A stretch of DNA of 64,000 bases from positions 12,648,001 through 12,712,000 of the forward strand of contig CP158635.1 of the NCBI GenBank assembly GCA_050273025.1, given 5' to 3'. Below, in pieces: positions 9,900 to 49,838 of the stretch (its first letter is position 1; every line of letters starts with the position of its first letter). This stretch comes from Cenococcum geophilum (lineage: Eukaryota). The position numbers were made by a program, and so were the translations under genes. Below the pieces are notes generated by a model, which had not been told where the DNA came from, ran no database searches, and saw only the letters and a program-made list of their open reading frames with translations.

Positions 9900-12617
9900 T
9901 AAGCTTTTAATAATAAACTACCCTCTCTATTAACCAATACCGCTAGAGGATTAAGAGATACAGCGGATATAGTGCCCGAGGGCATTAGCCGTCTTGTCCT
10001 ACCCCCATTATCTCCCCTATCGTCTCCCCCGTCGTCTTCCCTATTGCTATCCGCAGCTTAATAGCGGTCCTTAATAGCCTATTTACTACTGCCAAACTAC
10101 ATAGATCCCCAAGAGGATAAAGAAGTAGAAGTTAATAAAATACCCGCAATATCCGCAATATCCGCCGAGAAGATATCCGCTATAGAGAAGGTCCGGGTAA
10201 TTATTAACCGTCTTAGGCTATAGTGGATGTCTATAGGAGACCTAGCGCTTAAATGGATTATAATGGCTAAAGGTTCACACAAGGCACTAAAGAAAAAAAG
10301 AGTAAGGGAGCTCCTTAATAAACTCCTAGAGGATGCTGATATCCTAAATATCTATACTAAAGAGATAGAGAAGCGCGGCATAGTAGGTGCTAGTGTTGCT
10401 CTTACTATCTAGGGAGAGCTTAAAGAGCTAAGGGAGAAAGAGTTACTATTTAGCAGCTTTAACCAATATACGGATATTAAGCAGCTTAACCTTAGGTAGT
10501 GCTATTAAGCCGTAAAGACTTACGCACCTATACTAGAGTATATAATTATAGTATGTTAAGAGGGTTAACGCAAATATTCTCCGCATAAAGGCCGTGTGGT
10601 TCTAATAGCTTTTACGCTTATATTTAGCCTTTTACAAAACTTTGCAAACTATATCCTACGGCTGCTAGGGATATATCTCTAAGCCAACGGCGTTAAGCGC
10701 CGTGTGCTTTCTGTGCTCTATGGGCTTGGATTAATTAATAGTTATACCACTTTAAACCAGCAAAAGGAGCGGATAGCCTAGGAATTAAGGTTTAGCCCAT
10801 AATCTCCGCGGTGTAGGTATATACTAACCTATATATAGGTAAAAATCCGCTTAATAGGTATAGCTTCTAATACTATTATTATCTATAATAACTTTAACTA
10901 CCTCTAACGAGTTTAGCATTAAACACTTAGGGATACTGGGACGTTCTATTCGCGCATAACTGGCAAGCTTGTCTTTAGTATAAGTATACCTAATAGTAGG
11001 CTTTAATAGAGTATGCTTTATGTGGATATTCTAATTAAGTTCTTAGATATTATAGAGGCTCTAGGTAATTTATAAGACAAGATACAAAAGCAGATCTCGA
11101 CAGCTTTAATCTATAAAGCTATTATAGAGGCGTACCCAGGCCTTAATATATTACTTAGTAAAAACCCGCGGTTCAAACATCCACGTATGCCTTCTATTAA
11201 TGTAATACCCGCTATGCGGACGTCTAGGTTTAACCTAGAACCTATTATAACTAAAGAGGCTTCTATATCTGAAACCTATAAGGTACTAGACAACATTTTT
11301 CTCTATTAAATAAATCTATAACGCACTAATAAAGTATTTAAGGAGCGACTGTTTCTAATCTATAGTGATTAAAAGACCGCAAAGCTTATTCGGTTATGTC
11401 AGGGAGAACGTACTAAGTCAATATCCGCCTATAATAGCCTGCGTTGGGCTCTGCCTATTCTAGCTCTTTAGCACCTAAAGCTAAACTACCTATATATGGT
11501 TATACGGTATTACTATAGTGGCAAGCAATTAGCCTAAGAGTACTCTACGCTGTACACCTATATGAACCACCTAGGTCAAAGAAATATCCCAGCCGAGCGC
11601 GCGCCGTTTTATTATATGGAGGAGCTAATTCTCCATAGCTTCGACGCTTATATCATAGCGTTGCTCTATACTTAGATTAAGGAGTCTTATAATACCAAGT
11701 CGCCTATAGATATTAAGCGGTACCTTAAAAGCCTATCTCCGCAACGTCTATTAGCAGTAGTTAAGGATATCCGCACAGCGGTTTTCGGTTAGGAAGTCTC
11801 TTGGGCGGCCAACCATGCCAGCCAGCCTGCGGAACCACGGCAAAAGGGTTACCTTAAGCAGGCTAGCAGTGCTGTATCCTTATAAATACTTTCTAAGCCT
11901 GCTAATGCAGAGTTTCTAATGTATATCCGCTTTTTACAACTAGTAGAGACGTATAAGGTCCTTAAGCACGCCATTAAGCTTGCGGATATTGGCCTGCTTA
12001 GCCATATACTCCCCCGTATTTATATCTATTTCGCAAGTGGTTAAAATAAGAACTATTTACTAGAGATATTACGTTTCTTCTAGTTAACTTTAACAGATGC
12101 TTATTTCCCTAAGCTCTAGCAAGCTATCCTAGTAAATAGTCTAGTGAATATCCGCGGCGAATAGGATAGTTACTATCTGATAGATCTTAACAACGAGCTA
12201 CTTAATGGGGAGCTAAAGCAGCTTATATATACTTGTGGTAATTCGATATTTAACCTAAACTTACTCTTCCGCTAAAGTATTTATATAACTAATTATACAG
12301 GGCCACTATATATAAAGTTTGAGATTACATTTGGCGAACGGATGTCTACTCAACATACTGTTAAATCTCCTATAGCGGATATTTAATCGCTTACTAATGC
12401 AATTGCCGAAGGTTCTATTATCCGCCGTTAGGCACAGCGAGCAAAGATGGAAGCGCCGCCTCTACTATAACTAGGTATTAAACGACTTAATTAATCTACC
12501 CTTAACGAGTTTAATTTACGGCTAGGCGGTAATCTTTCCGCTATGTTTAATGAGCTTAATCTTTATGACGATAATAATAAGCTAGATGGCTTTGTACTCC
12601 CTACCGACTTTACTTAA
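9900..12617 (+). pseudogene. Academ-type DDE transposase (DUF6589-like), RIP-inactivated
   Basis: Readable motifs IIIYNNFNY (~10875; YDNFD before RIP), LFLIYSD*KT (~11350; GDQ), AL*HLKLNY (~11465), HYMEELILHSF (~11610) and IDLNNELLN (~12180). Probable intron ~10790-10838. Start is approximate. Confidence 0.72.
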
Positions 12618-12769
12618 ACCTAGCTTTAACCTATATATGAGTTGCTCGATAAGTAATATAAGATATTAGCTATAAGCTATTACTATAACCGTTTAATATC
12701 CGCTATAGTTAGTAGCACTGGTATATATTCCCAAGTAATTGATATTATTAATTAATTAATCTATTTAGT

Positions 12770-15510
12770 TCCTAGGCCGTGCTTGCTAGGGGTATAAGGT
12801 ATAAGGGGAAGGGGGGGCGTCATCCTAATAGATATTAGCTACTATGGTTGCAATATCCGCTTAGCGGATATAAGGTAAACTTACCTAGTATTAGCTAACC
12901 CCGCCTAATATTAACTAACCTCGCCTAATATTAGCCCGCTATATACTAATTGGCGTTGCCGTTAATTTCCTATAGTGCTTTTTGTATACGTTTGCCTCTG
13001 TTTAATTGCGCCAACTACCTTTATAGTACTAATAAAGACGTATCCAACTAGCGGGTTGCTGGCGGTATAGATATATCTAACGGCTAGTATAAGGGTAATA
13101 ATAGAGGAGTAGGAGCTGGAGACCCAAGAGTTGGCGAAGGCATAAGTATATCCTCTTCCTAAGTTATTGGCAAAAGGTCTATAGCTAACTATTAACTAGC
13201 CTATAATATATTAGCGCCACAGTAAGGCGCTAATTGCTATAGCGCTAATATTTTAAATCTCCTATCTAAAACCTGCGAAGCCTGTATAAGAGCCTATAAT
13301 AAGCGCTCATCTATAGTAGCGTACTGCTCTAACGCTTGGAAAAACCGCTCTAATATCTATATAATTAACCCAGAAGAACCTAAGAGTTGCCCTATTTCTT
13401 TCTATTTCTGCTTTTATTTTTTATCTACTAAAAGCTTAATAAGGGACGGAAGCTCCTTACCGAGGATATTAGGATCCCACTTAGGCATTACTTACCTTAA
13501 TAATGCCGCATCTAGAACCCACCCTATATTACAGAGGCGACAAAGCTGCTTATCTGGTATAACATAATTAACTATAGGCGTCTATAATGTATCCTAATAC
13601 CTAGCCTCCGCCCATTACGTAAACCACTTCTATATATTGCTTAACATAGGCTCCCAGTAGGTTTTCGCAATATCCGCACTATGGCTAGTGCGGATATCGT
13701 ACTTATAATCCATAAATATTACTAGGTTGCAGTTACTGTAACACAAGTCTTTACTAACAGTAGACTGTGGGTCTCCATAGTATATAAGTTATATTACTCG
13801 TAAGCATACCTAATTCTCATTAACTAGCCGCCATAGGGTGAATGGCAGTTTACTATATAACTGCGCATTAGTTAACCGCTTCTTTAGGTGTAGGGTTGGT
13901 ACAATAAGCTCTTTAGGTAGGCGTACTATAGAACTACTAGGGCTTAACCTACGCCCACTTCTTATATCTACTAACTGCTTAGTACTAACTAACGCTATAA
14001 ATAAAGCATCGCCCGCAATATCCACAGTCTCTGCGTTTTGTCGCCCGCGGATATTATTACGTAGCGCGCTTGCGCGAAAATCGCCTATATACTAAGGTTG
14101 TATATACTTAGAACTACCTAATTTATTATAAGGACCCCACCAGCGGCTCTTAACTATAAAGATTGCTTCGCCTAAGAGGCCTTCTCCTCGGCCTACCCGG
14201 CCAAACCGCTATGCCAGCATATTATAGGATTTGTGGTAAGGTATTCCATATTAGATTAAATAATAGATATCTAGGACATCTGTACTATATGCTACTGCAT
14301 CTAATATAACAAAAATTCGAATTTGAGACATTAGGCGCACGTATTCGGCGTATAAGCGGTCTTTATTAATATCCGCAAGCGTTGCGTGGTAGCTCTATAC
14401 CACTTCTCTAGCAACAGCAGCATCGTAGCCGCGATAGATTAACTAGCTGCGAATAGTATTACAATAGGCAGCTATCCACTCCTTAGAATTAAAGAAGATG
14501 ATCGTCTTTGGAATTAGCTAAAGTTGATTAAACTGTTGGCGGTATGTCTACTATGCGGATATTAAGCGGCTTCTTAATTGCTCGCCTTCTCCTTAGTTAC
14601 TATTACTAGCAGTATACGAATACACTAGAGTAGTAGTAATAGTAAAGTAAAGAGCTTGAAAGTCCTTCTTCTCTAACACAGTTATAACCCTCCATATAAT
14701 CTTTAGCTCCGGCCGATTAATTGGGGTTTTAATAACTTATATATTAGGTTTAAACCTAGCTAGCTTACATACAGTCCAAAACGTAAATAGGTTTAGTGTT
14801 ACGGTATATGTAAACCAAGGCTTATTAACTAAGACTAAACATACTTTAAAGAGTTGTGTATACGCTATACGGAAGGTCTCTCCCCAATTAGTAAGTAGGT
14901 GTACTTTATTAACCACTATAAGGGCAATATAGGAATAAAATATCGGGTCTATCAGAACCTTATATAGCTTATCACTAACTAAAAGCTCTAGGGAGATAAG
15001 GATATATATATAGCTGCCCATACGGATATCCTTAATCAGCTCGGCGGATATTGTTTTCTCCTATATATAAACAGGTCGAACATAAGGTAGCTTTATAATC
15101 TTTTTTACTTACTCTAACCTAATCGCGTTAAGTAGAAGAACAATAATAATAACTACATTAGGTACAAGACATAGTAGTGCTTGTATTATTATACTTTTAC
15201 CAAAAGACGTCTTTACCACAAGCATAAGATCTCGCCGCTCAAATATCAGCACCCTTAGGGCCTTAAGCTGCTCCGTATAACCGCGGTACGGATATATCTC
15301 CACAATAGCTTTATCTAGCTTGCTTATTTAAAGTTTATAAGAGCTGCTTATAAGCTAAAGTAGCTCCCTCCGCAGGCTATATAGCCGTGGAGACCGCTAG
15401 AGATCCATTTTAATATAATCCCTAGCCCATTGCGTACTGCCAGCTTATTAATCTGCTTAACTAGCTTATAGTTTACGACCTCTTTGCCTTATTTACTTTA
15501 ATGGAGGCAT
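12770..15510 (-). pseudogene. RecQ-like SF2 helicase of the AcademH element, RIP-inactivated
   Basis: Motif I LVVKTSFGKS (ORF 15109-15303), motif II VVNKVHLLTNWG (DEVH before RIP; ORF 14737-15021), motif VI *RFGRVGR (~14195). ATG at 15510. The 3' end is approximate. Confidence 0.88.
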
Positions 15511-16009: not shown

Positions 16010-18145
16010 ACTAAAGCTCTGCAAAAGCTCTACCAAAAGCTCTACTAAAGGCTTTGCAGCACCTCTGCCCACCCAGTATACTGGCTGGAGCACACAGTGC
16101 GCAGTGGGGTCTAAGAGGGTCCCCCTTAAAGCTCTGCTCGAAGCTCTGCTTAAAGCTTTACTTAAAACCCTATACGGAGCTCCAAAGCTCTACTAACACA
16201 CAGCACTAATATACCAGGAAGGTTCTGCAATCGGCCGTATAACCGCCCATACGGTCAATCGCCGTATAATCATCTCTACGAACGGCTCCACGAACGGCTC
16301 CACGAACGGCTCCACGAACGACTCCACGAACGGCTTTACGAACGGCTCTACAAACGTCTACACGATCGCCCGTACGAACGTCCATACAACTGCCCATGCG
16401 ATCGTCTCTACAAACGTCTACTACAATTGATCACCCGTACGAGCGTTTGCACCCTACACGCCTATACGTGGCTCTATAGAAGCTCTACACAAAGCTCTAC
16501 ACAAAGCTCTGTAAAAGCTCTACTAAAGTCTCTACCAAAGCCTCTATAAGAGCTCTGCCCACGCAGTAAATAGAGCACGTAGTGCGCAGGGGGGTCCAAG
16601 GGGGTCTCCCCCTTAAAGCTCTACTCAAAGCTCTGCTCGAAGCTTTGCTTGAAGCCCTATACAGAGCTCTAAAGCTCTACTAACTCGCAGCACTAATATA
16701 TTAGGAAGGTTCTGCAATCGGCCGTATAACCGCCAATACGACCAATCGCCGTACAATCGTCTCTACGAACGGCTCTACGAACGGCTCTACGAACGGCTCT
16801 ATAAACGTCTACACAATCGCCCGTACGAACGCCCGTACGAACGCCCGTACGAACGCCCATACAAACGATCAATTAAACGTCTATACAATTGCCTATACGA
16901 TCGTCTCTATAAACGTCTCTACAATTTATCGCCCGTACAAACGTCTACACGCCTACATATAGCTCTATAGAAGATCTATACGAAGCTTTACACGAAGCTC
17001 TACACGAAGCTCTGCAAAAGCTCTACACGAAGCTCTGCAAAAGCTCTACCAAACGCTCTACCAAAGCCTCTGCAAGAGCTCTGTCTACGTTATAAATGGA
17101 GCACGTAGTGCGCAGGGGGGGTCCAAGGGGGTCTCCCCCTTGAGCTTAAAGCTCTACTCGAAGCTCTACTCGAAGCTTAATACGGAGCTCTAAAGCTCTA
17201 CTAACACGCAGCACTGATATACTAGGAAGGCTCTATAATCGTCTACACGAACGGCTCTATAAACGGCTCTACGAACGTCTGCACAATCGCCTGTACGAAC
17301 GCCCATACAATCAATCAATTAATTAAACGTCCATGCAATTACCTATACAATCGTCCCTACAAACGTCTCCGCAGTTAATCGCCTGTGCGAACGCCTGCAT
17401 GTGGCTCTACATAAGGCTCTGCACGAAGCTCTACCGAAGCTTTGCATAAAGCTCTACCAAAGCTCTGGACAAAGCTCTACCAAAGCTCTACACGAAGCTC
17501 CACTAAAGCTCTACACGAAGCTCCACCAAAGATCTATACGAAGCTCTGCAAAAGCTCTACCAAACGCTCTACTAAAGCCTCTGTGAGAGCTCTGCCTACG
17601 CGGTAAATAGAGCACGCAGTGCGTAGGGGAGGGGGGTCCAAGGGTGTTCTCCCCCTTGAGCTTAAAGCTCTACTAACATACAGCACTAATATACTAGGAA
17701 GGCTCTATAATCATCTATACAAACGGCTCTATAAACGGCTCTACGAACGTCTACACGATCGCCCGTATAAACGCCCATATAATTAGTCAATTAATTGATT
17801 AATTACCTATATAAACACCAATACAATTAATTAATGAACTAACTAAACGCCCGTATAAACGTCTCTATAAACGGCTCTACAAACGTCTATATAATTGATT
17901 AGTTAATTAATTGCCTACACAAACGCCCGTACGAACGATCGATCAAACGCCCATACAATTGGATATACAATCGTCTCTATAAATGTCTCTGCAATTAATC
18001 GCCAGAACAAACGACTGCACGTCTGCACGTCTGCACGTCTGCACGTAGCTCTACCAAAGCTCTGCACGAGGCTCTACCAAAGCTCTACGTAAGGCTCTAT
18101 TAAAGCTCTGCACAAGGCTCTGCCTAAAGCTTACCCCCTACTACA
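16010..18145 (+). repeat. Complex satellite: about four ~500-bp units built from AAGCTCTRC and GAACGGCTC/AACGCCCGTAC subrepeats
   Basis: The block GAGCACGYAGTGCGCAGGGGGGTCCAAGGGGGTCTCCCCCTT...AAAGCTCTACTAACACGCAGCACTAATATACTAGGAAGG recurs at ~16090, 16575, 17100 and 17612. Confidence 0.9.
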
Positions 18146-18445: not shown

Positions 18446-21400
18446 GCCCGCGAAGCCCTACTGCACGCGTCCACGTCGCCGTGGGTGGAAACATCATCAG
18501 GAATCAATTCCTTTTGATGGCCAAGTGCAGAGGCGATGGTAGAGAGCCGCCGCAGCGCGTGCAGCGCGCTGTCGTCGCGGTTCTGTGGTGTTGAGCTCGC
18601 GACGCGTACGATATATTGTACAAAGCTTCGCACAAAGCATCGCCCTTAACAACACCAGGAGCCTTACTGCCTCCGCTTAAGGCTCCTGCTCTACCACCTA
18701 GGGAGGCCTATTAAGGGAAACTGGGATACGAAAACTACCCGATGTACGACTACCTGGCTCGTAGCCAGGCCCGAAACTGGCCTTATTAGCCAGTTAACGT
18801 GGACGCGTCCTAGGCGTACGATAGGATACCCTTGGGCTTGCACTAGCTCTGAGACCGTAGGGACACGGCGAGGGCGTAGGGAACCTCTTTTTATAAGAAC
18901 TTGTTAAGGTTAACGCGTTGCAGATACCTTGTACGAAACTTATTAAGGCCCTAAGGCCACCATAAAGAACTTGTTAAGGCCCCTACCTAGAGAACTCGTT
19001 AAGGCCCCTCTACGAGGGCCTATCTGGTATCCGGTACTCCCAGGTAACTCAGAAGAGGGTCTTAATAGGCGTGGTGCGCGCGACCTGGACGCGACAGCGA
19101 CGCGATAGTGACGCGACGGCGACTAGACGGCTCGACGAGGTGGAAATATGGGTAAAGCTCTAGGCAGCGGAAACACAGGCCAGCTTCGACGGCCCTATGG
19201 CGACCAGGTGACTTATAGGAGGGTCTTAATAGGCGTGGTGCACGCAACCTGCGCATATATATATGGGGGAGGCTCTAAGGAAACACAGGCTAGTCGTACG
19301 AGGTCTCGATAGTTAGAGACACAGGCTAGCTTATAAAAAGGGGGGATACAAGCTTGGTTAGTAGGAGAGGGTAGAGCAGGTTGCCTGGCGCGGGACTGAG
19401 CATCTACGACCCCTCCTGCAAGACACGGTCGGCCTGTTATGAGGAGACTCTTACAGGCAACGTGAAACGGAGACTAGTAGTATATAGGGTGTTGCGCCCC
19501 TATACTACTACTAGCCCCCATGGGGCGTAGTGCGTAGTAGCCACTGCTGGCTCTAGGGACCTTACCCCTTAGCTAGGCTCTGACCCCTAGTGCACCTAGT
19601 AGGCAGGCAGGATCACGTCCTGGCCGGAGAGACTACTACGTGGCTTAAGAGAACGGATGCGCGTGTCGGTGTACTAATAGACAGGACTGCTCGCTAGGGC
19701 AGTACGCTAGTGAGGTACGCTTAAGGAGCAAACAGGAGTTACTTAGGCGGGAGAGGTTTGGCAGGCCTTAACTGTAGAAGGTGCACCTACTCTATACTGC
19801 AGGATGCAGCCACGACGCCCTTGTAGGATTACGCCAGTAGGCGCGTAAGATGGGAGTTATAACCCCTGCAAATGGCAGCTTATGCCCGTGCCAGCAGAAA
19901 TAATAAAGAGAGGCGTGAAACTAGAGGCTATGGAAGGCTCCTAAGCCGTGCGAAAGCGTACTAACTCTAGGAGGAAACTCTTATACAGACTGCTAGGGGG
20001 CAGACTGGTACTTAGGCTAACCCTATTATAAGATATCCGTAAAAACTGGTGAGAATCCCTGTGTAATTAATAGTGGTAGCTAACTGCTTGTGGCTGGGAT
20101 AAAGTACTGGAAAACTGAGGTAGAGGCCTAGATAAGCAGGCATAGTAAACTCTACTGTATTATTAGTACTACTAGTATATATAACTACCTGCTTTTCTTT
20201 CTCCTCCTAGCTTGTCTAAGAAGGGAGAGAAAAGAGAACATCCTCAAACTTCTCCTGAAAAAGAAAACCAAAAACCTGTAAAAAAGAAACTAATAACTAC
20301 TACGGATGGCACACCTAGTACACCTATACCTTTTCCTCCCCTTTCTCTAGAACAATACCTACAAAAAGCTCTAGAAAGCCTAACCCAGGTATATAAAGGG
20401 CTAGAAAAAGAAGAAGAAAAAGAACAAGTTAAACAGCTAGAGGACTATACAAGGAGTATCCTAGTAGGAGAAAACCCCTTTATAAAAGGAAAAGAAAAAG
20501 AAAAGATAAAAGATGTCCTAAAAGGACTAGTCGAAGAAGTAAGAGCTCTCTGTAAGGAGGTAGCCCCTACTAAAGAAACCTACGCAGAGAGGCTAAAGAA
20601 GGACCTCCCTACTTCGTCCTCTCTACCCTCCTCGTCACTACCATTTCCTACTCCTTTTACTTCTACTAAAAGTAAGAAAAAGCAGCTATAAGAAAGAAAG
20701 CTAGTCCTAATTACAGACCAAAAGGACCAACCTTTAGATACCTTCTCTATACGAAACAAAGTTAATTAACTATTTGCATCAAAACTGCAAGTAGAAAAAC
20801 CTGTTTTAGCATCTATAGCTAGAACTAAGGGAAAACAAAATATCCTCCTTACGACTACGGAAGAGTATAATGCGGATTTCCTAGTTAAATATAAGGAAAT
20901 CTGGCATAACTGCTTTACCTTTTAAAGAGAACAAAAACTAGAACTATGGGTTTAAATTATAGCCTATGGGGTTCCTACCCTACCTTTCCTAGGAGAAGGA
21001 GGCTCTAAGCTTCTAAAAGAAGAAATTGAGACCTTTAATCCTATAAGGTTATAAGGACTACCTAGATGGATCTCATTTAGTGTAAAAAGACACGATCTAT
21101 AGACCAGATTTGGCTTTATAGTTTTTACTATAGAGAACGAAGAAAAAAGACAAGAAATCCTTAAGTAAAAAGAGATATCAATTGCAGGTACAGCTACTAA
21201 GGTAGTAAAATACCTCGAAGTCTCTCCTACTACGCAGTGTACGAGCTGCCAAAAATTTGGCTATATAGGAGACAGGTGCTCTACTAGGGCCTACAGATAC
21301 TGTGCAGCTACATATTTATCTAAAGACTATTCCTGTTCTACCTGTATAATAACAGGCAGGCCTTGCCAGCATACCACCCCTCTTTGCATTAATTGTAAAG

Positions 21401-37037: not shown

Positions 37038-37811
37038 TGATAAAGGCGGCTACCCCCCTACTCTCGTCCCACTTTAGCGTTGTTATAGGACACTCCCGTA
37101 ACACCTTATACACGTCCACCTGTTTTCACTAACTTAGCAACTAAAGACCGACCACTAGACGGCAATCTACTACATTCTACTATATTCCGCCAAGTTCTAC
37201 TAAATTCTGCTATATTCCACTAAGTTCTACTAAGTTTTACTAAGTTCCACCAAATCCTACTAAGTTCTGCTAGGACCACCACCTAAATCCTATTCTGCTT
37301 TATATATGTATTAATTAAGCAACTAAGTCTATAATATATACCCATTCTTCCCATTTTCCTACCTTTCCTCCTTACGTAATGTCTTAACCTCCTTATACAG
37401 TTTATGTATATAGCTTAATAATATCTACCTTGCTATATATTACCGCCGCTTATACTTACTCCGTAATAAGTATATAATATCCCTACTTTAGTACTATAGG
37501 CCTTATTAGCTAATAGAATACCACGCTACCCTTACTACTCCTACTATCTTTAAAATTCCTCTATAAAGCGTTTAAGAGGTTATAAGTATACGTTTAATAT
37601 AAACTAGGTCCATTTTCTAATATATATTAGTTTTAAATGACTTTAGCGGCGTAAATATACTAGCTATAGTCTTAATACGCAATATATTTAAATTATAATA
37701 ATTATAACTAGCTAACTACCGTATTAGGGGGTAAGATATAGCCTTAAGTTTAAAGATATATTTTTAAAACTAGTTCCTCTTTGCTAGCCGTATTAAAATA
37801 GCGGCCGTACT

Positions 37812-37901
<90 letters not shown>

Positions 37902-37908
37902 CTACTAC
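37812..37908. repeat. (CTA)n microsatellite
   Basis: About 30 CTA units in a row. Confidence 0.95.
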
Positions 37909-38024
37909 TCTATTTACTATTAAATTTAATAAATTACCTCTTATACCCTATTATAAATAGCTTACCTAATTATACTATACTTATGCTAGTAGGTATAGAT
38001 TTGCTTTATAATAGGGGGGAAGTT

Positions 38025-38400
38025 TTAGGTAGAGGCTTATATAGAGCTGTAGTAGAGCTTTATATAGAGCTATATATAGAGCTATATATAGGTATATAAA
38101 TAATTAAATATAAAGACGTTTATAGAAAGGATTATAGAGGTAATTATTTAAACGTTTATACAGGCGTTTATATAGATAATTAATTAATTAATTATATAGA
38201 CGTTTATAGAGCTATTCGTAGAGACGTTTATATAGGCGTTTATACTAGCATTTATATAGACAATTATAGTCTTCTTAGTATATAGAACTTATATTTAGGC
38301 TTGTTTTTAAAGACCTTATAAATGGCTTTATATAGGCATTTATATAGGTATTCGTATAGGCGTTTATATAGGCGTTCGTATAGACGTTTATAGAGACCTT
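38025..38400 (-). repeat. Heavily RIPed inverted copy of the AAGCTCTA/AACGCC satellite
   Basis: TAGAGCT and GGCGTTTATA subrepeats are the reverse complement of those at 16010-18145. Confidence 0.7.
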
Positions 38401-39380: not shown

Positions 39381-42300
39381 CTATCGAAGCCGATCCTCCC
39401 GAGCTAACTCATCATCGTCCAACCCTTCGTTCACGTTTCTCAGATATTTATCGAACTTGCTCGACACGTTTATGACGTGGCGTAATGAGATAAAATCCAG
39501 TGGTTTGCCTTTGTACATAGCGAGCTGCCGGGCAGTGGTAACAGCATTCCGAATTTCCCTACCATTCATGTCGAACTTGGAAAGATCATTCCGATGACTC
39601 CACAAGTTATCGATGTCAATGCCGTCTGTCTCGAACGATTTCAGGCGATTGATGAAGTTCTCCCAGACTCTCTTTCTAGACGATTGAGTTAACTTTTCGT
39701 AGTGTAGTGCAAGCTGTATGCGAGACTTGAAGGCTTCGTCGAAGGTACCAACACGATTACTCGTAAGGATAAGGATGCCTAAGGCAGGTTTAAAAAAAAA
39801 TTACACATAGTGCGAATGTCGAAAGAGTGTGTACCATCGTAATATTCCAGAACGCGTAGGAAGACTGCCAGAAAATGATCAGTATTTAAGTATCCTACAT
39901 GTCGATTACGGAACGCACCTGATACCAGAGCATTCCGTTGTAAGTCTTGTAAAGACCTCTCTTGCAGAAAGACTTCCGCTTCATCCAAGAGCACGACTGT
40001 AAGATATCAACCATGACCTTGGAGGCTTTCCTTGACGGGTCAACGTACCACAATCCCACATTTTCCCAAGCTGAAGAACAATTTTGAGGTACTTTTCGAC
40101 ATTTTCTGGTGTTGTCCCTATATCACCACAGGTGACACGGTACAGTGGCTTTTTAGCATACTCTGCGACGCTATCGAAGAAGTCAGTCGCGAGTCCAGGT
40201 CGATTTTAACAGTTCTGCACTCCTCAGAAACTACACCTTTCGGCTGTTAACGTTTTGCCTGTTCCTGGTCCTCTGTTCCTGGTCAGCAAACATCAAAATC
40301 ATTGCAATCATTTGTGATTAGAAGTTCGGGAAATCCTTTTACCCATGAAAAAGTATAACCAGCCCACTTCCCTTGCCACCTATGAGATCAGTACTTTTCG
40401 AAGGATCAATTTTGTTGGTTACAAGTGCCATGATTAACTCCTTAGTCTCATCGTCAATTACTAATGATTTGAAAGCATCTTGGTCCCAGCACACAGGACT
40501 CGTATTTTCAATTAACAGTAGTCCTGCCATTGAATGGTCAGTAGATGTTCTCACTTCAAGGCTGACCAAGAATCGGAAGAATATACGCCATTTTTTGTCC
40601 TGCATATTGAAGCCCATCACGCAATATGGTAGCAGAAGAGTGAAATCTTCACTAGGGGGCTTTTTGTTTCCCATGACTTCAGGACCAAGCTCATCTTTGA
40701 GTTGCAATTTCGAAATGGGTGCTTCAGGCTGGTATCTTTTGACAGCCACAGTGTCAATCATGAACCGCATGTCGCGCTATTGTTTCACAGCTTCTATTAA
40801 TGCGAGAACTACATCCCGCTGCAGGATTACACTTACAAACTTTTCAACCTTCCCAAAGTCCCATCCATTGTATGAGACAAATTGAGTATAACGGCAGTCC
40901 CAAAACTTTCTCCCTCTACTGGCGAACAACTCTTGCGTACCATCTTTCGCGTAGCGAAGCGGATAGGTCAACAAGTCCCGAATGGGAAAAGGCTTGTCGG
41001 TATCCGCACAGTGAGATATCACGTGCGACTTTGTCACACTCTGGAACACGCCGTCATAATCCCATATCATCACGTTAAACGAAAACTTGCTCGTCAAGCT
41101 AATCAAGGGATTTGAGCCCCCGTCGCTCATTTTCGAGGCCCATGCTTGTGTAATATCCGGCCACGTTACTTGCTTAGCGCCGCGACAATAAGAGAGATCC
41201 GTGCCCTTGTCACTTATGATCAACACTTCGGTTGGCACCTATATGCGTCAGGCATAAACAGCCATAATATGCGAGAAACTTGGGAATGGAGAAGTCTGAA
41301 GACTGAGGTTACTGACAAAGAGGTATTCCAGATATTCTCTCGAGATAACCTTTTTAGAGAGCTGTTTTTCGAGTACGGCAAACTCATTCCCTTTATCCGA
41401 GATCATATATTCCATAAACAGCGCAAGATGCTCTCCGTGAGCTTGGTTTATACCTTCTAATGCTGAAATGAAACTTGCTTTCTCGTGGAAGAACCATATA
41501 TGAGGATTCCTAGCCTTTCCGTTGAGTTTGAACTCTGGAAAGAGCTTCCCCCGAGTGGATAATTCTTTTACAATATCGAGAACTTCGCACAGATCTTCAT
41601 GGAGTATTTGCAGCATTTCAAAGGAAGGAACAGGCTGCTCCTCGGGCTTCAGTAGGTTTGATCCAGGAACGCAACAGTTGTACTCTTTGATGATGATGAA
41701 TGACAGTCCCCGATGTCGCTCAATGAGCAGCTCCATATTGGAAACCTTATCTCTTCCTCCTAGATGGTACGGCCTCTGCCCGTAGCCAACCATGTGAGGT
41801 TGGTCGAGAAAAATAGCTTTAGATCCATCTGCGTGGCAGCGAGTCCTGTGGAGAACTTGATAGGAGACTTTCACGGGTTCTTCTTGCAGTGGCTCCTCCA
41901 CTGGAGCGACGAGAGGCTTCAGCACCTTACTCACACGGTTAAGACAGTCCAGTAATGCGCTATCGGCAGTCTCCGGCCCTGCTCCAACTAATTCGCATAA
42001 TCGATTTCTCCAATCGACTTTGTCGCAAGAAACCTCGTCCCAAAAGTCTAAGATGGGTTTCTTACTCCCGAGTTCAATATGAGACGCCTTTATCTGCTTC
42101 GCTCTTTTGGATCCCATTTCAACCTCATCGCTAAGGCGCCTTTTCGAGGGCACATTAGCTGTAAAGCTGTCATTAGACGCGCAGCTTGATGGAGAAAAAA
42201 CGTGTGGCTGGGAATCCGCCGTCTCATTCCCGGAAGGGATTGGTTTTAGAGAGGCCTGCAAAGAGAACATAAGGAACAGCGCCCGACCACTCAAGTATGG

Positions 42301-43254
42301 TTAACTTACGAAATGTATATAGCCATCTTTCGCGAAGCGGTCATTCTGGTTCTCATCACGTCTGCAGGTCTGGTCGAAAAGGGTTTCTTCTACGCTTCGC
42401 GGTGCCCCTCCCCTCTCTTTATGAACAAGAATCTTCTTCACACCGGAATCATGCCCCGTAGACGCAATGCCAGTTTGTGTTCGCTCGTTAATCGCACCGT
42501 GCTCAATGGACCAGAGTTGTGAAGGCTTAGGAAAACCTTGCAGGCTTGTTACTCAATCAATTCAATTCAATTGAGGCCTTGAATTGATTGAATCGAAAGC
42601 TTTGTAAGCAGAAGGTTCGGTTAATTGAATTGATTGATTCAATATTGAAACGATCGCAATTAATTGCAACTACGTAGTAGTTAGTAATTATCACGAGTCT
42701 CGGCATAGTGTTGATGCAGGGGGCCTACCTGGCGGCGCCCGAATCGCTTTCTACCATCGTTTCCGTCGCTCCTGCCGTTAATATAGGTCTATCGCGAGTC
42801 TTGGCATAGTGTTGAGTTACTATCCTGTTGTGTACCCCCTGTTCATAGTGGTAATAGAATTGATATTGTTGGTGGGCAAATCTAGTTATAAAACTTTTCT
42901 TACCTGCCAAGATCCCGGCGATAATGTGATAGTGTAAACAACGAGTAATGCTCGGGTAACCCTTTTTTGGTAAGGGGGTCTAAGAACAATAAGGTTTAAA
43001 GCATTATTATATGTTATGTTCAGCATATTTCTATATAATATTAAAAGATTCAATATTTATCAATCAATTCAATTCAACTAGAACCCCTATATTGATTGAG
43101 TTGCCAAGCCAGCGAGCTCTCAGTTGATTGAATTGATTGAGTCTTGGCATTCAATTCAATTCAATATTGAAACCTGGGTGATTGAATAACAAGCCTGTAA
43201 ACCTTGTGACTGTGACCAGGCCATAAGCGATCTGCTAACACTCTCAAGGGACAT
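39381..43254 (-). CDS. Multi-exon fungal AAA+ ATPase (DUF7025-type N-terminal region plus AAA domain); exon 1 interrupted by a MITE
   Basis: Walker A ILFHG|GPGTGKTLTAE (~40240-40350), Walker B VLLDEAEVFL (~39980), NALVS..FLRVLEYY, DEAFKSRIQLALHY and NGREIRNA. Canonical GT-AG introns (e.g. 42309-42256). Removing the MITE and one TSD joins ATG 43254 (MSLESVSRSLMAWSQSQGFPKPS...) in frame to exon 2. Confidence 0.88.
42541..43197. mobile_element. Non-autonomous hAT-like MITE
   Basis: TIR CAGGCTTGTTAYTCAATCA with many subterminal TCAAT/ATTGA repeats. Duplication AAACCTTG at 42533-42540 and 43199-43206 (8 bp plus one extra base, or 9 bp with one mismatch). Confidence 0.9.
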
Positions 43255-43694
43255 CTAGATTGTGATTCTGGCCTCTGTAATTCGCTTTACGACACCGCAC
43301 AACTTCCAGTTGCGCGCAGTTGTGCCGTTAGGCCGATAATTCAAGACTACCTCACGAATTGCAGCACCGGGGCTCGCCTATAAGGACCTAATTCAGAGGC
43401 TGAGAGTTCGCTGATAGTTGTGACAGTTGATTTATTGTCTTGAGTGAACGCGGGTTTGGAGCAGGTTAAATACTTGAGCAGTTGAGGTGGAACTAGGAAG
43501 AGAGAAACGTCGCATTTTTGCGAACCGCGCATTTGTTTCTGTGACCGGTCGGTGGCTGAGTTTAGTAGGCAACGAATACGTGTAAGAAGTCCGTACATTG
43601 TAGAACCGTTATCGCTCCACTGCTGTGCGCCCTTTCCACACTTCCGACATGCCTTTTAGAAGGGACTCTGTCTTAAGATCTCTTCTCCTCAAAA
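43255..43694. promoter_or_regulatory. Putative bidirectional promoter of the divergent gene pair
   Basis: 440 bp between the two divergent ATGs; inferred from position only. Confidence 0.5.
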
Positions 43695-46636
43695 ATGAAC
43701 TCAAGGACGGTGATAGATCACCCGGCAACCTCTGGATGGCTAAATGATCAGCATGAAGGCTCGTAAGACCCACCGTAGTACCCTTGCATCTCAAGGCTGG
43801 CTGCTGGTGGCTAACAGCTCATCCCAGGATTTCTGGGCCTGCGAAAGAAGCCTTCAAGGAAGCCGTCGCACTTTTTGACACCAATTTCACAGAGGACGAA
43901 CGCAGACGCATATGGCTCTACGAGAAGAACGCCATGGATGCTGTACAAGAAGTCATCGATAACGCCAAAGCTCGATATGAGGAGGGCAAGCGCTCAAAAG
44001 CCCGCAAATGGCTTGCCTTGTTATCTACTAGAGTCTTGTTATACGGGCGAGTCTTGGATGTGCTTGCGCAGCAACATCCTGAGTACGTTTCTCTAGTATG
44101 GGGTGCCATAAAGTTTTTCTTCATCGTTGGTCGTCCTCTCCCTCCGATGTGGTCGACTGTGAAGCTTACAATTTTCTACGAACAAAGGGAGTTATGAATC
44201 ATGAGGAACTCATCAAAGAGCTCGCCAAAGCACTTTGCCGGATTGCGGATGCGTTGCCACAGGCTGAGCTGCAAGTATTTCTATATCCAACCAACAATAT
44301 AAGGCAGCTAGTTGTTACTCTTTACACCCAAATCGTTAAGTTTGTACAACGAGCAGCAACCTGGTACAGCGGGGGTAAGGCAAAGCACTTCGTTACGGCG
44401 TTTACCCGTCCATACAATCTCCGCTTCAAGGATCTTGTCGAAGAGATCACCGAAACATCAGGCAAAATTGACAGGCTCGCTCTGAGCATGGCTATGGCCG
44501 AGCTTCGAGTAATTCGTACTGAACTTGAAGAAGCTCGCATCGAACAACGCTCTACACATAGTGTTACTTTGGAGGTCAGGAAAACCTTGGAAGGTTGTAC
44601 TCCATTCTAGGCGTGGCTGATATGGTTCAGCTAACCTCAACACATAGAATACCACAAATTGCAATACTTCAGCTTACTCGATACAAGCAGAAGGGTGTGT
44701 GAAGTTCAATTTTCACAAATTCTAAGCTTCATTGCAGCGTCTCCGCTACCGGGTCCGGAACTAAGCCGGCAATTCTATACTTCGAGAAGGAATCGGAGGC
44801 GTAGGAAAAACGGCAGTAGTGGGGAGATTGCTGCGCTTGGGAACGCAGTGCAGCTGCATGAATGGGCCTTAGACAGATCCTCGTCAATGATTGCCGTCCG
44901 CGGCTCTTTTTCCACCAGACACACTGTGCGGGATTTCGCAGCCGATGTGATTGACAGCATCAGCGTCACGAACAATCCAGTCGTTTGGGCACTAAATTCT
45001 GGGAACAATACCACTATCGACTATACGCCAATAGACGTGTTGAAGCAGATTGTCTCTCAAGCCCTACAGCAAAACCACACCTTACTGAATGAGCGCTCTG
45101 CTGCTCTGAACGCAGCTCGCTTCCAGAGTGCAGTAACGGAAAACGAGTGGTTCAGCTTGGTCGGCTCTGCGCTTGAGGGATTACAGACGATCTACATCGT
45201 TATTGACCTGGAGGTTATCGCCCATGCCATCAGTACCGATACGTCATGGTCTGAGGCATTCCTGCAGCTCTTCGATGAGTTTCAGGCGCGCAGTGTGTCC
45301 AAGAGTCAGCGACGCTGTCAGCTTCGCTGCCAAGAGGCTGCTAATGTAAGCAGTCAGCTAGCTGACTGAGTTGTGACAGTCAGTCAGCTATAAGACTGCA
45401 GCTAGCTGACAGCTCGCTGTCTTGGCGGTAAGATTTGGTGGTGAGTTGAAGCTTTTGGTAGAAGTTGAGGATATTCGGATGATCTGGTTGGTTAATTATA
45501 CGCCAAGCGATGGGAAACCCATGGGAAACTCTCGCTTAGCCATAGTAAATGAAGCATTTTCCCCAATATCTCCATTGCGCGCCGATACCCGTGCTAAAGC
45601 TTACCATTTTATTACCCATACAAAATGCAATATACGTTGCATTTCACGCGTCAGCCAGGCAGTAGAGCTTCTTCGTCTGCTTCCTCCTCTACTTCTTCCT
45701 TATTTAATTCACAATCTACGCGTCATTCAGCTCCTTCAGCACCGCGTAGGGTTCGTGGATCAACTGCTTCCTCTCCCCTTCCGATTAACGATGATACCGA
45801 ATCGGGCGATCAAGACGATTACTGATGAGCGTAATCGACTATTGGCCGACATAATTGAAGCAGATTAATGTTAAAAGTGGTGGTTAATTAAAGGCCTTTT
45901 ATCAAGCAGTTTAATCGACTGTATTAACTCCGATAGAGGTTCAACTACACCTTAGTTGACGAGCTTGGATATTGATCTTAGCCAACTACAGAGGGAGAAA
46001 AGCCAGCTTGGTAAGATACATTCAACGGAGCTTCGTATTTGATCAAATCTGGCATAGAAATAGAGCCTCCGGAGCCCTCGCCGATGCCTTCTTTCTGACC
46101 TTGCCACTGACGTCACCACCAAACGTTCTACCTTTTTAAACCTCTGTGGGTGCGCAGGACGAATTTAGCCATATTTGAATACCATATCGGGTGAATTGGG
46201 GTTGGATTTGATCGGGCAACGTTAATATTTGTATATAGAGAGGTGCTGCCAAAAATCCGCAATGAAACACCATAAAGTCTATATCGCTTTCCTAATTGGG
46301 ACAGCTAGCTGACAGCGTGACAGTCAGCGTACCTTACCTTGCAGTCAGCGGACAGCGAGCGGTCCAATTGACGCAGTCAGTCAGCTATAAAAGCTGAAGC
46401 TCGCAGCTAGCTGACTGTTGGACACACTGCAGGCGCGCAATCTCCGAATTAGGGTCAAGGTACTATTTGTGAGCTCTCGAGGGTCTCAGTCTTGCCATCT
46501 ATCAAGCTGCGAAAGACGCAATGTCCTCGGAATCCCGAGACATAGATCGCCGAGGGTGACGAAGCAAACACATTCTAACCAAGGCAGGAAGCGGCGTCAA
46601 CGACTTTCTGATGTATTTAAAAGAATAGAAGGGTAA
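43695..46636 (+). CDS. NACHT-like protein (DUF7708-type N-terminal helical domain plus degenerate P-loop); last exon interrupted by a hAT element
   Basis: Exons 43695-43762, 43828-44125, 44188-44593 and 44648-45290 plus 46438-46636 join in frame. Motif YGRVLDVLAQQHPEYVSLVWGAIKFF is typical of fungal NACHT N-termini. The Walker A position reads MIAVRGSFSTR (no GK[ST]); Walker B-like IYIVIDLE; KVLFVS after the insertion. Confidence 0.82.
45291..46429. mobile_element. Non-autonomous hAT element
   Basis: TIR CAGTGTGTCCAA..AGTCAGC / GCTGACT..TTGGACACACTG, perfect 8-bp TSD CAGGCGCG (45283-45290, 46430-46437), subterminal GTCAGC/GCTGAC repeats. Confidence 0.93.
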
Positions 46637-48173: not shown

Positions 48174-49838
48174 TTACCTCAGAAGCTCAGACCAAGAAAT
48201 CGATTGCGGATATAGGAATATCCGCACCGTCCGCTAAGCTGATTTAGGACGGTAACTAATCGTTTTCGTGGTCTGAGAGACTTTGGCGAGATTTGTAGGA
48301 AAAACCTAAACACGGTTTATATAAGAAGACCGTATTAACTTTAACGAAATTGATCTACCCTTCTACAATACCTATTAACATAAAAATTACACTAAATTAT
48401 AGAGAAAAGCCTACTCTATAAGTTATGAGATCTTTAGCTCCTTATACACGCGCAATGTTAAGAGGAGTTCGTTGTCGCAGAGGCTCCAATTCCACTGCCC
48501 TACTGTCGACCTGAATCGGATTTTGCCACCTTGACTCGGTCACTGACCCCTTGACTCGGTCACCGACCCCTTGACTCTGTCATCGACTCAGTCACCTTCA
48601 TGTATTTATAGAGGCTCTAGAGCCACATTCAATAGACAGACTTCTCATTCTTGACCTGCGCACGGACCTACGATTGACACCTACTAAGGCGCGTAGTAAA
48701 CACGCATACGCCTACGCCACCAGCCCTCTTTGCAACCAGTGGGTATTCCATCTGCTATATACCTATTTAATTTATTTACTTTACAGCCCTTTACAGGTTA
48801 TGGTGTAGGCCCTAATAGAGTTGTAAGCTCCGCGTCTGTGTAGAGCTGTAGAGCTTTGCGAGGGCTCTGCAGAACGAAGCTTAGGGGGAGACCTGCACGG
48901 AGCTCTGCACGGAGCTCTACTAAGGCTCTGCGGAGGCTCTGCACGAAGCTCTGTAAAAGCTCTACTCGAAGCTCTGCTCAAAGCTCTGCTTGAAGCTCTG
49001 CTTGAGGCTCTGCTCGAGGCTCTGCTCGAAGCTCTGCTCGAAGCTCTGCTCGAAGCTCTGCTCGAAGCTCTGCTTAAAGCTCGAAGCTCTGCCCGAAGCT
49101 CTGCCCGAAGCCCTATATAGAGCCCCAAAGCTCTACTAACACGCAGCACTAATATACCAGGAAGGTTCTACAATCGCCCGTATGAATGCCCGTATGAACG
49201 CCCATACAATCGTCTCTACAAACGTCTCTGCAATTGATCGCCCGTACGAACGTCTACACATCTGCACATCTACATGTCTACACGTCTGCACGCCTGCACG
49301 AAGGTCTACTAAGGCTCTGCACGAGGCTCTGCGCGAGGCTCTGCGCTAGGCTCTGCCCAAATCTTACCCCCTAGTAGTAGCAGAGGCTCTCCGGGCTAAG
49401 GGAGGATATTTTCAAGGAAGGACCCAACTATAGCACCTACTAGGTGTTGCAATAGCTTTAAGTAGTAGATGTCTACATATCTATATAGTTTTATTAATAT
49501 TAGCAGACTATTTAATAGGATACAATACGTGCTTAGGCTTTTAATAACGCGTTTTTTAACTTTAACGAAATTAATATTAGGACTAAGCAATAGCCGTATT
49601 ATAAAATTTATACCATTTAGAAGCCCTAAGTCTTAAAAATAATGTATGAACTTTTGGTAATAATAACGCGTTATATAAATAAATAAATTAGATATCCGCA
49701 ATCTCCGTTTTGCAGATTTTGCTTAGGATTTTAACAAAACTCGCCAAACGCTCTCAGACGTGATTTTGCAAGAAGGAGACGGCGTAGCTGTTATTCTGAC
49801 GCTAGCCAAAAAAATCACGTCTGAGCCCGCTGAGGTAA
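48174..49838. mobile_element. Non-autonomous Academ-type element (1665 bp) with internal cargo or nested repeat
   Basis: Same TIRs; 9-bp TSD ACCTGAACG/ACCTGAGCG (48165-48173, 49839-49847). Confidence 0.9.
48840..49375 (+). repeat. Partial copy of the AAGCTCTGC satellite unit
   Basis: (GAAGCTCTGCTC)n and AAAGCTCTACTAACACGCAGCACTAATATACCAGGAAGG match the units at 16010-18145; ends CTTACCCCCTA like 18130. Confidence 0.85.

Follow-up and report, generated by a model that had tools for sequence, protein, structure and literature searches.

Neighbours of fungal genes for proteins resembling nucleotide-binding receptors with leucine-rich repeats (NLRs) have been treated as NLR-effector and NLR-NLR combinations, and pseudogenization driven by transposable elements is described as common and strain-variable in the sections of three reports that deal with such loci (PMC9815663, PMC13449251, 10.1101/2024.11.26.625400). 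In pairs of the NWD2/HET-S type, a signal transduction ATPase with numerous domains (STAND) and its working partner are direct neighbours inherited as a unit, often in variable, transposon-rich regions where pseudogenization is polymorphic among strains, according to the parts of the sources that cover them (PMC9815663, PMC13449251, PMC4344463). In plants, sensor and helper NLR genes can be arranged head to head, and the available portion of one account describes such pairs as divergent, with sensing and signalling split over two proteins (10.1101/2024.11.26.625400). In the present study, we analysed a window of Cenococcum geophilum DNA (the whole stretch of 64,000 nucleotides, positions 12,648,001 to 12,712,000 of contig CP158635.1), which carries a divergent pair consisting of a gene for an AAA ATPase and a gene for a DUF7708 protein with a STAND-like domain, hereafter the partner. 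The pair resembles the NWD2/HET-S type in its adjacency, its co-inheritance and its variable, transposon-rich setting, and differs in that the STAND-like protein has neither a P-loop nor repeats and its neighbour is an AAA ATPase rather than a HeLo or other effector. Both members of the plant pairs carry nucleotide-binding domains and repeats, whereas here a classical AAA protein stands beside a repeat-less pseudo-NTPase, and convergent arrangements make up one third of the fungal pairs. The partner shares a DUF7708 match above the cut-off, and an NPHP3_N similarity that stays below threshold in the corresponding region, with canonical fungal NLRs of the NACHT/NPHP3_N type that have DUF7708 at the N-terminus; unlike them, it lacks Walker A and repeats, has about 540 aa in total and is linked to an AAA gene, a linkage that we term obligate. 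Literature searches on fungal NLRs, AAA genes, gene pairs and inactive NACHT domains returned no description of the pair, although supplementary neighbour tables may list such AAA proteins uncommented, and they returned no paper naming DUF7708, DUF7025 or AAA_lid_13, nor the Botrytis gene identifiers.

Based on the results described below, we lean towards the reading that the two genes are a copy of a two-gene module conserved across Pezizomycotina, which would act in the manner of an NLR divided between two polypeptides. Gene structures, family traits, conserved linkage and insertion polymorphism were observed directly, and the sequence comparisons give good support to a co-inherited two-gene unit.

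The pair lies in an island of 42-49% GC at 39-47 kb, against 29-40% GC across the rest of the window. All stop-to-stop frames of at least 130 aa fell within 39381-45868, apart from two low-complexity frames, and the GC-richer stretches outside the pair held tandem-repeat or low-complexity frames only. The distribution of open reading frames (ORFs) and the GC island thus bore out the original prediction that these are the only reconstructable host genes of the 64 kb. Its claim of divergent transcription was also confirmed, by six minus-strand and three plus-strand introns in RNA contigs. These contigs came from a set of 24 listed public RNA runs, of which 20, from 14 studies, contained at least half of the sampled words of the stretch (X22-X24 contained about 3%), and four were mapped here. 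Both genes were represented as spliced RNA in the contigs.

The AAA ATPase gene occupies 39381..42270 on the minus strand, stop codon included, and encodes 796 aa in nine exons (41317-42270, 40837-41238, 40587-40776, 40343-40523, 40237-40272, 40049-40170, 39919-39996, 39835-39864 and 39381-39778), a structure that combines RNA joints with frame-based prediction. Six CT..AC joints were found in the X5, X6 and X16 contigs (39778-39833, 39865-39918, 39997-40048, 40273-40342, 40523-40585 and 40777-40836), and three RNA-contig joints were moved by 1-2 bases to reach canonical splice sites. Two further introns, 41239-41316 (GTCAGT..TAG) and 40171-40236 (GTGTAG..TAG, with an unusual donor), were predicted from canonical sites and frame restoration. 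In the spliced product, Walker A (GPGTGKT, residues 577-583, 40251..40271, minus strand) was invariant in the family alignment A5, as were the D and E of Walker B (VVLLDEAE, residues 629-636, 39974..40049, minus strand), whose coding sequence is interrupted by the intron 39997-40048. The region comprising sensor-1 and the second region of homology (LTSNRVGTFDEAFKSR, from residue 669, 39720..39767, minus strand) was conserved in the same alignment and is followed by AAA_lid_13; sensor-1 and the arginine finger are putative assignments from motif position. The full spliced protein thus bore out the earlier claim that Walker A, Walker B and the second region of homology are intact in the AAA gene.

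Pfam models were scored on the window genes exon by exon. AAA_lid_13 matched the last AAA exon with an E-value of 3.2e-15 (56.8 bits against a cut-off of 27). The AAA domain of the window is split across small exons, and the Pfam AAA model was scored on homologues, where it reached 54.7-67.3 bits (cut-off 21.2). DUF7025 (PF22942) gave 18.3 bits on exon 2, below the cut-off of 27, and 28.6 bits on the relative P0024; in blastp, the spliced protein aligned with DUF7025-bearing proteins from about residue 85. From there to its end it was 59% identical to P0016, 44.5% to P0106 and 43% to P0074. A word-indexed search with the first AAA exon returned no relative, which reflects a limit of the index, since blastp of the spliced protein aligned many. 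Of 2213 candidates, 1890 were relatives at E≤0.001; AAA and AAA_lid_13 occur in homologues, some of which also have DUF7025, and Walker A was present in 110 of the 120 database relatives examined.

The 5' part of the partner gene (43695..45290, plus strand) consists of the exons 43695-43762, 43828-44125, 44188-44593 and 44648-45290, starts at the ATG at 43695 and encodes 472 native residues, which cover DUF7708 and most of a P-loop-less nucleotide-binding-like domain. This structure was derived from three GT..AG joints in the RNA contigs (43763-43827, 44126-44187 and 44592-44645), Pfam matches and family alignments. DUF7708 (PF24809) was matched on two exons with E-values of 3.3e-35 and 3.2e-15 (121.5 and 56.7 bits, cut-off 25). 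Past residue 472, the C-termini of homologues diverged from the frame of the window and instead matched a frame at 46430-46636. This severed 3' end (46430..46636, plus strand) encodes the last 65 native residues, namely the strand RVKVLFVS, a basic stretch and the terminal helix, and it is joined to the upstream exon in the metagenome allele L020. The gene had been predicted to run continuously to 46636; its last exon is in fact interrupted at 45291-46429 by a 1139-bp element with terminal inverted repeats.

To characterize the partner family, we compared its members at the site where Walker A would be expected. Homologues have 430-543 aa and are annotated with DUF7708 alone, and DUF7708 was matched in 15 of the 16 members of alignment A1. 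A profile of 33 diverse last exons retrieved 1130 library representatives at E≤1e-3, including 497 at E≤1e-30. The former P-loop site of the window (AVRGSFSTRHTVR, approximately 44890..44928, plus strand, coordinates computed from the exon frame) reads GSFSTRH, and the family shows the pattern GSF[KS]xRH or variants of it. GK[ST] was found at this site in none of the 63 metagenome loci, out of 80, whose match covered it, and none of the 149 best library representatives had a P-loop there; GxxxxGK[ST] occurred in five of these representatives, each time off the site, in a Gly/Lys-rich tail or linker. The corresponding Walker B strand of the window reads YIVIDLE, and its final Asp was kept in at least 90% of the 33 diverse members, whereas the P-loop site was variable. 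In the model mddfd64627629, the site is predicted as a strand (80-85) followed by a helix (88-107). Judging from these alignments, the partner family as a whole has lost the P-loop, and its absence here is not local decay. No sensor repeats of the WD40, ANK, TPR or LRR type were found by Pfam, and the partner ends about 60 residues past the nucleotide-binding-like fold. The DUF7708 score together with the motif and repeat checks upheld the earlier description of a protein with a NACHT-associated N-terminal domain, no GK[ST] and no WD, ANK or TPR repeats.

The class of the C-terminal domain was assessed by sequence and structure comparisons. NPHP3_N reached 14.9 bits on the window piece, below the cut-off of 24.8; four of 16 members matched it, with a best E-value of 8.9e-5, and in a protein atlas the clusters closest to the partner piece carried NPHP3_N (score 0.94). 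The partner-family profile gave only a chance match to sequences in the PDB (E 1.5). With a truncated model of the window protein (214 aa, predicted local distance difference test (pLDDT) 76), Foldseek found nothing below E 0.9, and VIA-align ranked Avs3 (Z 8.6), ZAR1 (7.6) and Cdc6/Orc1 (7.5) before NRC2, MalT and Avs4, with CED-4 (Z 6.2) and Apaf-1 (Z 5.9) in the same ranking. A complete-domain model from L020 (pLDDT 84.9) matched ORC5, ORC4, Cdc6, MalT and NRC2 in Foldseek at E 6e-4 to 1e-2. These models indicated that the domain is a P-loop-less nucleotide-binding fold of the STAND/ORC type, an assignment that, given the middling scores, applies to the fold class only. At the sequence level, strict NACHT membership fails, as there is no Walker A and NPHP3_N stays below its cut-off. 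The predicted catalytically dead STAND-like partner therefore stood with respect to the family-wide P-loop loss and the fold, and not with respect to NACHT/NPHP3_N membership.

Within a single assembly, complexes of ORC and Cdc6 bring together AAA+-like subunits with and without ATPase activity; the logic proposed for the pair is the same. ORC5, ORC4 and Cdc6 were the best structural matches to the C-terminal domain of the partner (Foldseek E 6e-4 to 5e-3), although the relation may be one of fold only, as the partner has no sequence-level membership and no winged helix after the fold, and the TM-scores were 0.34-0.44. A second analogy concerns single-domain AAA remodellers. These proteins can act on a client with a C-terminal docking tail. 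Msp1/ATAD1, Vps4 with ESCRT-III tails and the TRIP13-like Cap6 with HORMA proteins (of the cyclic oligonucleotide-based antiphage signalling system, CBASS) resemble the AAA protein of the window in having a single AAA domain and a large N-terminal region, and the solved sequences nearest to it were NVL, Msp1/ATAD1, VAT, p97, Rpt2, spastin and Vps4 (E 8e-10 to 1e-6). Most C-termini of the partner family end in an Arg/Lys-rich stretch, and many then form a short amphipathic helix (LxxxLxxG-like, columns about 385-420 of alignment A3, modelled with modest confidence). This tail may be a docking tail or a localization signal, and it is the portion that is severed in the window. The AAA protein differs from the classical remodellers in its fungus-specific lid, AAA_lid_13, and in its lack of an aromatic pore loop 1. 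An aromatic-hydrophobic-Gly pore loop 1 is the motif expected of a threading unfoldase. In the original prediction the AAA protein acted as an unfoldase; because the aromatic residues that Msp1 and VAT have in pore loop 1 are absent from its family, a threading mechanism is doubtful.

The linkage of the two genes was examined in a metagenome-contig scan with the partner family (A2, ten full-length proteins), in which 196 stretches matched, 122 were confirmed relatives and 80 loci were kept. The flanks were searched with eight AAA proteins, and the loci were dereplicated at 90% identity. An AAA gene of this type lay within 4 kb of the partner relative in 43 of the 80 loci and, after dereplication, in 29 of 51 groups; where a single contig extended at least 3 kb on both sides, it was present in 15 of 16 groups. 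Unlinked homologues, the outcome that would have spoken against a unit, were thus the opposite of what was found. Among 1520 flanking ORFs, no other family recurred in more than three groups. Among named fungi, the pair had consecutive GenBank protein accessions, a proxy for adjacency rather than coordinates, in Xylaria scruposa, X. curta, Geoglossum umbratile (locus tags 005669/005670) and Phlyctema vagabunda, and accessions two apart in Phyllosticta capitalensis; those AAA proteins among the top 120 matches that came from Xylariaceae sp. AK1471 and X. acuta did not adjoin the partner. The named members belong to Sordariomycetes, Dothideomycetes, Leotiomycetes, Geoglossomycetes, Lecanoromycetes and Arthoniomycetes. 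Three loci contained an additional AAA gene of this type that had no recognizable partner beside it (L007 10639-11731, L014 1314-2335 and L056 285-774); therefore not every AAA of the family is paired. At L059 (about 11010-11489), a partner relative carried four stop codons in the matched segment and appeared pseudogene-like, with an AAA fragment 656 bp downstream.

Over the 29 AAA-linked groups, the arrangement was divergent in 19, convergent in nine and tandem in one, with gaps between matched segments of 471-3462 bp in divergent and 25-656 bp in convergent pairs. The divergence that the original prediction had paired with adjacency was thus found in about two thirds of the linked groups. 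A quick tree built on the partner domain had AAA-linked members in both major clades and all seven sampled convergent pairs in one. One alternative is that the two genes have separate functions and are neighbours through co-regulation or mere co-inheritance, kept together by shared regulatory DNA or low recombination. The commonest arrangement, divergent with a short spacer (19 of 29 groups), would fit such a case. It would also fit the RNA-contig depth, a poor measure of expression, which was 53-403 on the partner and 11-37 on the AAA gene and differed about tenfold between them in two runs, unlike what stoichiometric partners would show. A shared promoter, however, is impossible in the nine convergent groups, and the linkage has persisted although partners differ from one another at 35-87% of aligned positions and all other neighbours have changed. 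Since adjacency survives the change of orientation, a shared promoter alone is insufficient; the joint unit proposed earlier is well supported as a co-inherited pair. We consider it unlikely that the genes are merely such neighbours.

Alleles of the locus were also compared across metagenomes. Two contigs, L020 and L050, were 95.5-98.3% identical to the locus. The element in the last partner exon is a hAT-like non-autonomous element, that is, a miniature inverted-repeat transposable element (MITE), of 1139 bp (45291..46429), defined by its junction sequences and by the empty site in L020. Its inverted ends (CAGTGTGTCCAA[G/C]AGTCAGC) were identical at 19 of 20 positions, it was flanked by a perfect 8-bp target duplication (CAGGCGCG at 45283-45290 and 46430-46437), and it contained no transposase frame. 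The perfect duplication and the nearly perfect inverted ends mark the insertion as recent. RNA contigs had loose ends exactly at 45290/45293 and 46429, and since these are the boundaries of the element, it is repeated elsewhere in the genome; the window itself held no further copy of this or of the second MITE described below. The partner frame terminates inside the element at 45367-45369, so the product would comprise the 472 native and 25 element-encoded residues, and among the 65 native residues lost are the core strand RVKVLFVS and the terminal basic helix. Lacking core strand and tail, the allele of the window is probably null or altered, and the partner is probably non-functional here.

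The second element is MITE-like, has 658 bp and lies between the genes (42541..43198), with terminal inverted repeats beginning CAGGCTTGTTA, 22-nt inverted arms that are 91% complementary, and an 8-bp duplication (AAACCTTG at 42533-42540 and 43199-43206). It was absent from L020 and L050, each of which had an 8-bp overlap at the site, and RNA-contig depth over it was very high, as expected of a repeat. Because this element sits between the genes, the start codons at 42270 and 43695 are 1425 bp apart, and not 440 bp as had been predicted; in alleles without it, the distance is 767 bp. Both MITEs were recognized from RNA-contig loose ends and allele comparison, and a long-seed repeat search had missed them. 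In L020, both insertion sites were empty and the partner was an uninterrupted frame of 537 aa. L050 lacked the element of the window and carried a different insertion of about 3.1 kb (11410-14485), 42 bp upstream in the same exon, with perfect 20-nt inverted ends, the duplication CGTCATGG and transposase remnants of the hAT type, with a hAT dimerization domain (E 2.9e-7). This was an independent second hit within the last 80 codons of the partner gene. The AAA frame was open in all three alleles, and indels between them were confined to introns and untranslated parts.

These observations bear on the possibility that the locus is a decaying remnant in this genome, a once functional pair now turning into pseudogenes among transposons. 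A MITE divides the partner, whose frame ends inside the element, the second MITE lies in the promoter region, and the RNA contigs listed retained the two predicted AAA introns 41239-41316 and 40171-40236. These contigs also carried a 55-nt intron inside AAA exon 1 on the opposite strand (41652..41706, plus strand, GTAGGT...ACAG, joint in X5, X6 and X16 contigs), and this plus-strand GT..AG joint therefore indicates a spliced antisense transcript, which apparently extends over the 5' half of the AAA gene in the direction of the partner gene. The contigs with the antisense intron span 40343-42570 and keep the minus-strand intron 41239-41316. The unspliced AAA introns may reflect inefficient splicing, or antisense RNA that dominates the assembly. 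In addition, reads of run X21 were absent from both genes. Against decay, the six AAA and three partner introns were spliced in RNA, the AAA frame was intact in the three alleles, the 1139-bp insertion is recent and an intact partner allele exists in L020. The ratio of non-synonymous to synonymous substitution rates (dN/dS) among the three alleles was 0.03-0.13 for the AAA plus lid core, 0.25-0.35 for the partner and 0.55-2.4 for the first 575 AAA codons, where changes were few (e.g. 2 synonymous against 17 non-synonymous); the low value of the core also speaks against a remnant. Decay of the whole locus thus appears improbable, to about the same degree as separate functions.

Alternatively, the pair could be an element of the selfish or conflict type, for instance a spore killer or incompatibility factor, in which DUF7708 would be harmful, the AAA protein would neutralize it and the linkage would be kept because separation is lethal. 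Such a toxin-antidote pair would match the inactivation of the partner in two of three alleles with the AAA gene intact, as would be expected if loss of a toxin were tolerated and loss of an antidote were not. The tight, orientation-independent linkage with no third gene, the spread over six classes and the position of the window copy in a transposon-rich region marked by repeat-induced point mutation are also in line with it. However, the partner is under purifying selection, as judged from its dN/dS of 0.25-0.35, and no activity of DUF7708 has been demonstrated. The family of the AAA protein (1890 relatives) also appears far larger than the partner family (15 in a comparable word-indexed search), and there are partnerless extra AAA genes, e.g., that of L007. 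We regard a toxin-antidote element as quite unlikely, slightly more so than decay.

The two-gene module that we favour draws on all of these results. The genes are real, the nucleotide site of the partner is dead throughout its family, the AAA protein retains a live site, the linkage is deep and no third gene accompanies it; from these points we infer a functional two-protein unit, including physical interaction, a direction of control and a biological role. The AAA protein is a single-domain classical ATPase with a long, fast-evolving N-terminal half and a strongly constrained ATPase core. The partner consists of DUF7708, a P-loop-less fold of the STAND/ORC type and a basic tail, without sensor repeats; presumably unable to bind ATP, it would contribute an N-terminal output domain and a pseudo-nucleotide-binding oligomerization domain (pseudo-NOD) scaffold. 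The ATP-dependent switch could then be provided by the AAA protein, through assembly or remodelling, and its variable N-terminal region might also serve in recognition.

Several findings weigh against this module, besides the reliance on accession numbers noted above. In the pore-loop region, KWYGES of Msp1 and KYYG and KWVG of VAT align with the non-aromatic 'digtkpe-d' of P0106, and the window reads GDIGTTPENVE. The AAA gene was missing from 22 of the 51 groups; 16 of these were short on both flanks, three had at least 3 kb downstream only and two upstream only, and one fully flanked group (L018/L019/L029/L030) truly lacked it. Pairwise distances of partner and AAA proteins, which speak for co-inheritance, were correlated over 20 pairs (r 0.54, reached by none of 5000 permutations) after L016 and L075 (the latter represented by a wrong fragment) had been dropped; before that, r was 0.26 (4 of 2000 permutations), a value distorted by L016, which was represented by the conserved C-terminal 215 residues only. 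Instead of co-evolution, a species history common to both proteins may account, at least in part, for the correlation. Relaxed constraint explains the high dN/dS in the N-terminal half of the AAA protein equally well. With two of three alleles broken by transposons, the partner is dispensable at least in those strains. The raw-read run X21 had no reads on either gene, although this says little, as its only matches were to flanking repeats at 95-99%.

A bolder form of the favoured module would make the pair a 'split NLR', a widespread fungal switch of innate immunity or allorecognition in which two obligately linked genes share the three NLR functions between them. In this form, the AAA protein would use its fast-evolving N-terminal half for sensing and would drive ATP-dependent oligomerization, and the partner, recruited by its pseudo-NOD or its basic tail, would execute the response through DUF7708. 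The executor knock-outs of the window and of L050 would then be natural loss-of-function alleles under balancing or relaxed selection. We put this extension forward tentatively, as a possibility that is doubtful though less so than the alternatives weighed above.

Some features of the window lay outside the pair. Tandem repeats with YERL/HERL and SRAS/LEAL units at 16166-16970 and 48781-49167 gave long low-complexity, non-genic frames. A lone open frame of 168 aa, rich in Lys and Glu, was found in AT-rich sequence at 20185-20691 on the plus strand. Immediately upstream of the GC island, a CTn-type simple repeat at 37797-38099 produced a long poly-Leu-like run.

Fungal NLR-like genes are numerous and mostly without assigned function, and the two-gene units known among them consist of an NLR and an effector. 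The unit described here is of a different kind, with about 1100 sequence clusters that have no nucleotide site of their own and that stand almost always beside one type of AAA gene, and it gives DUF7708 and DUF7025 a concrete, testable partner relationship. Fungal contigs in metagenomes can substitute for a synteny search where a set of fungal genomes is absent. The three alleles, one intact and two with different hAT elements, are ready material for strain comparison, and whether another ATPase can drive a STAND scaffold in trans is a question for which the pair provides a natural test.

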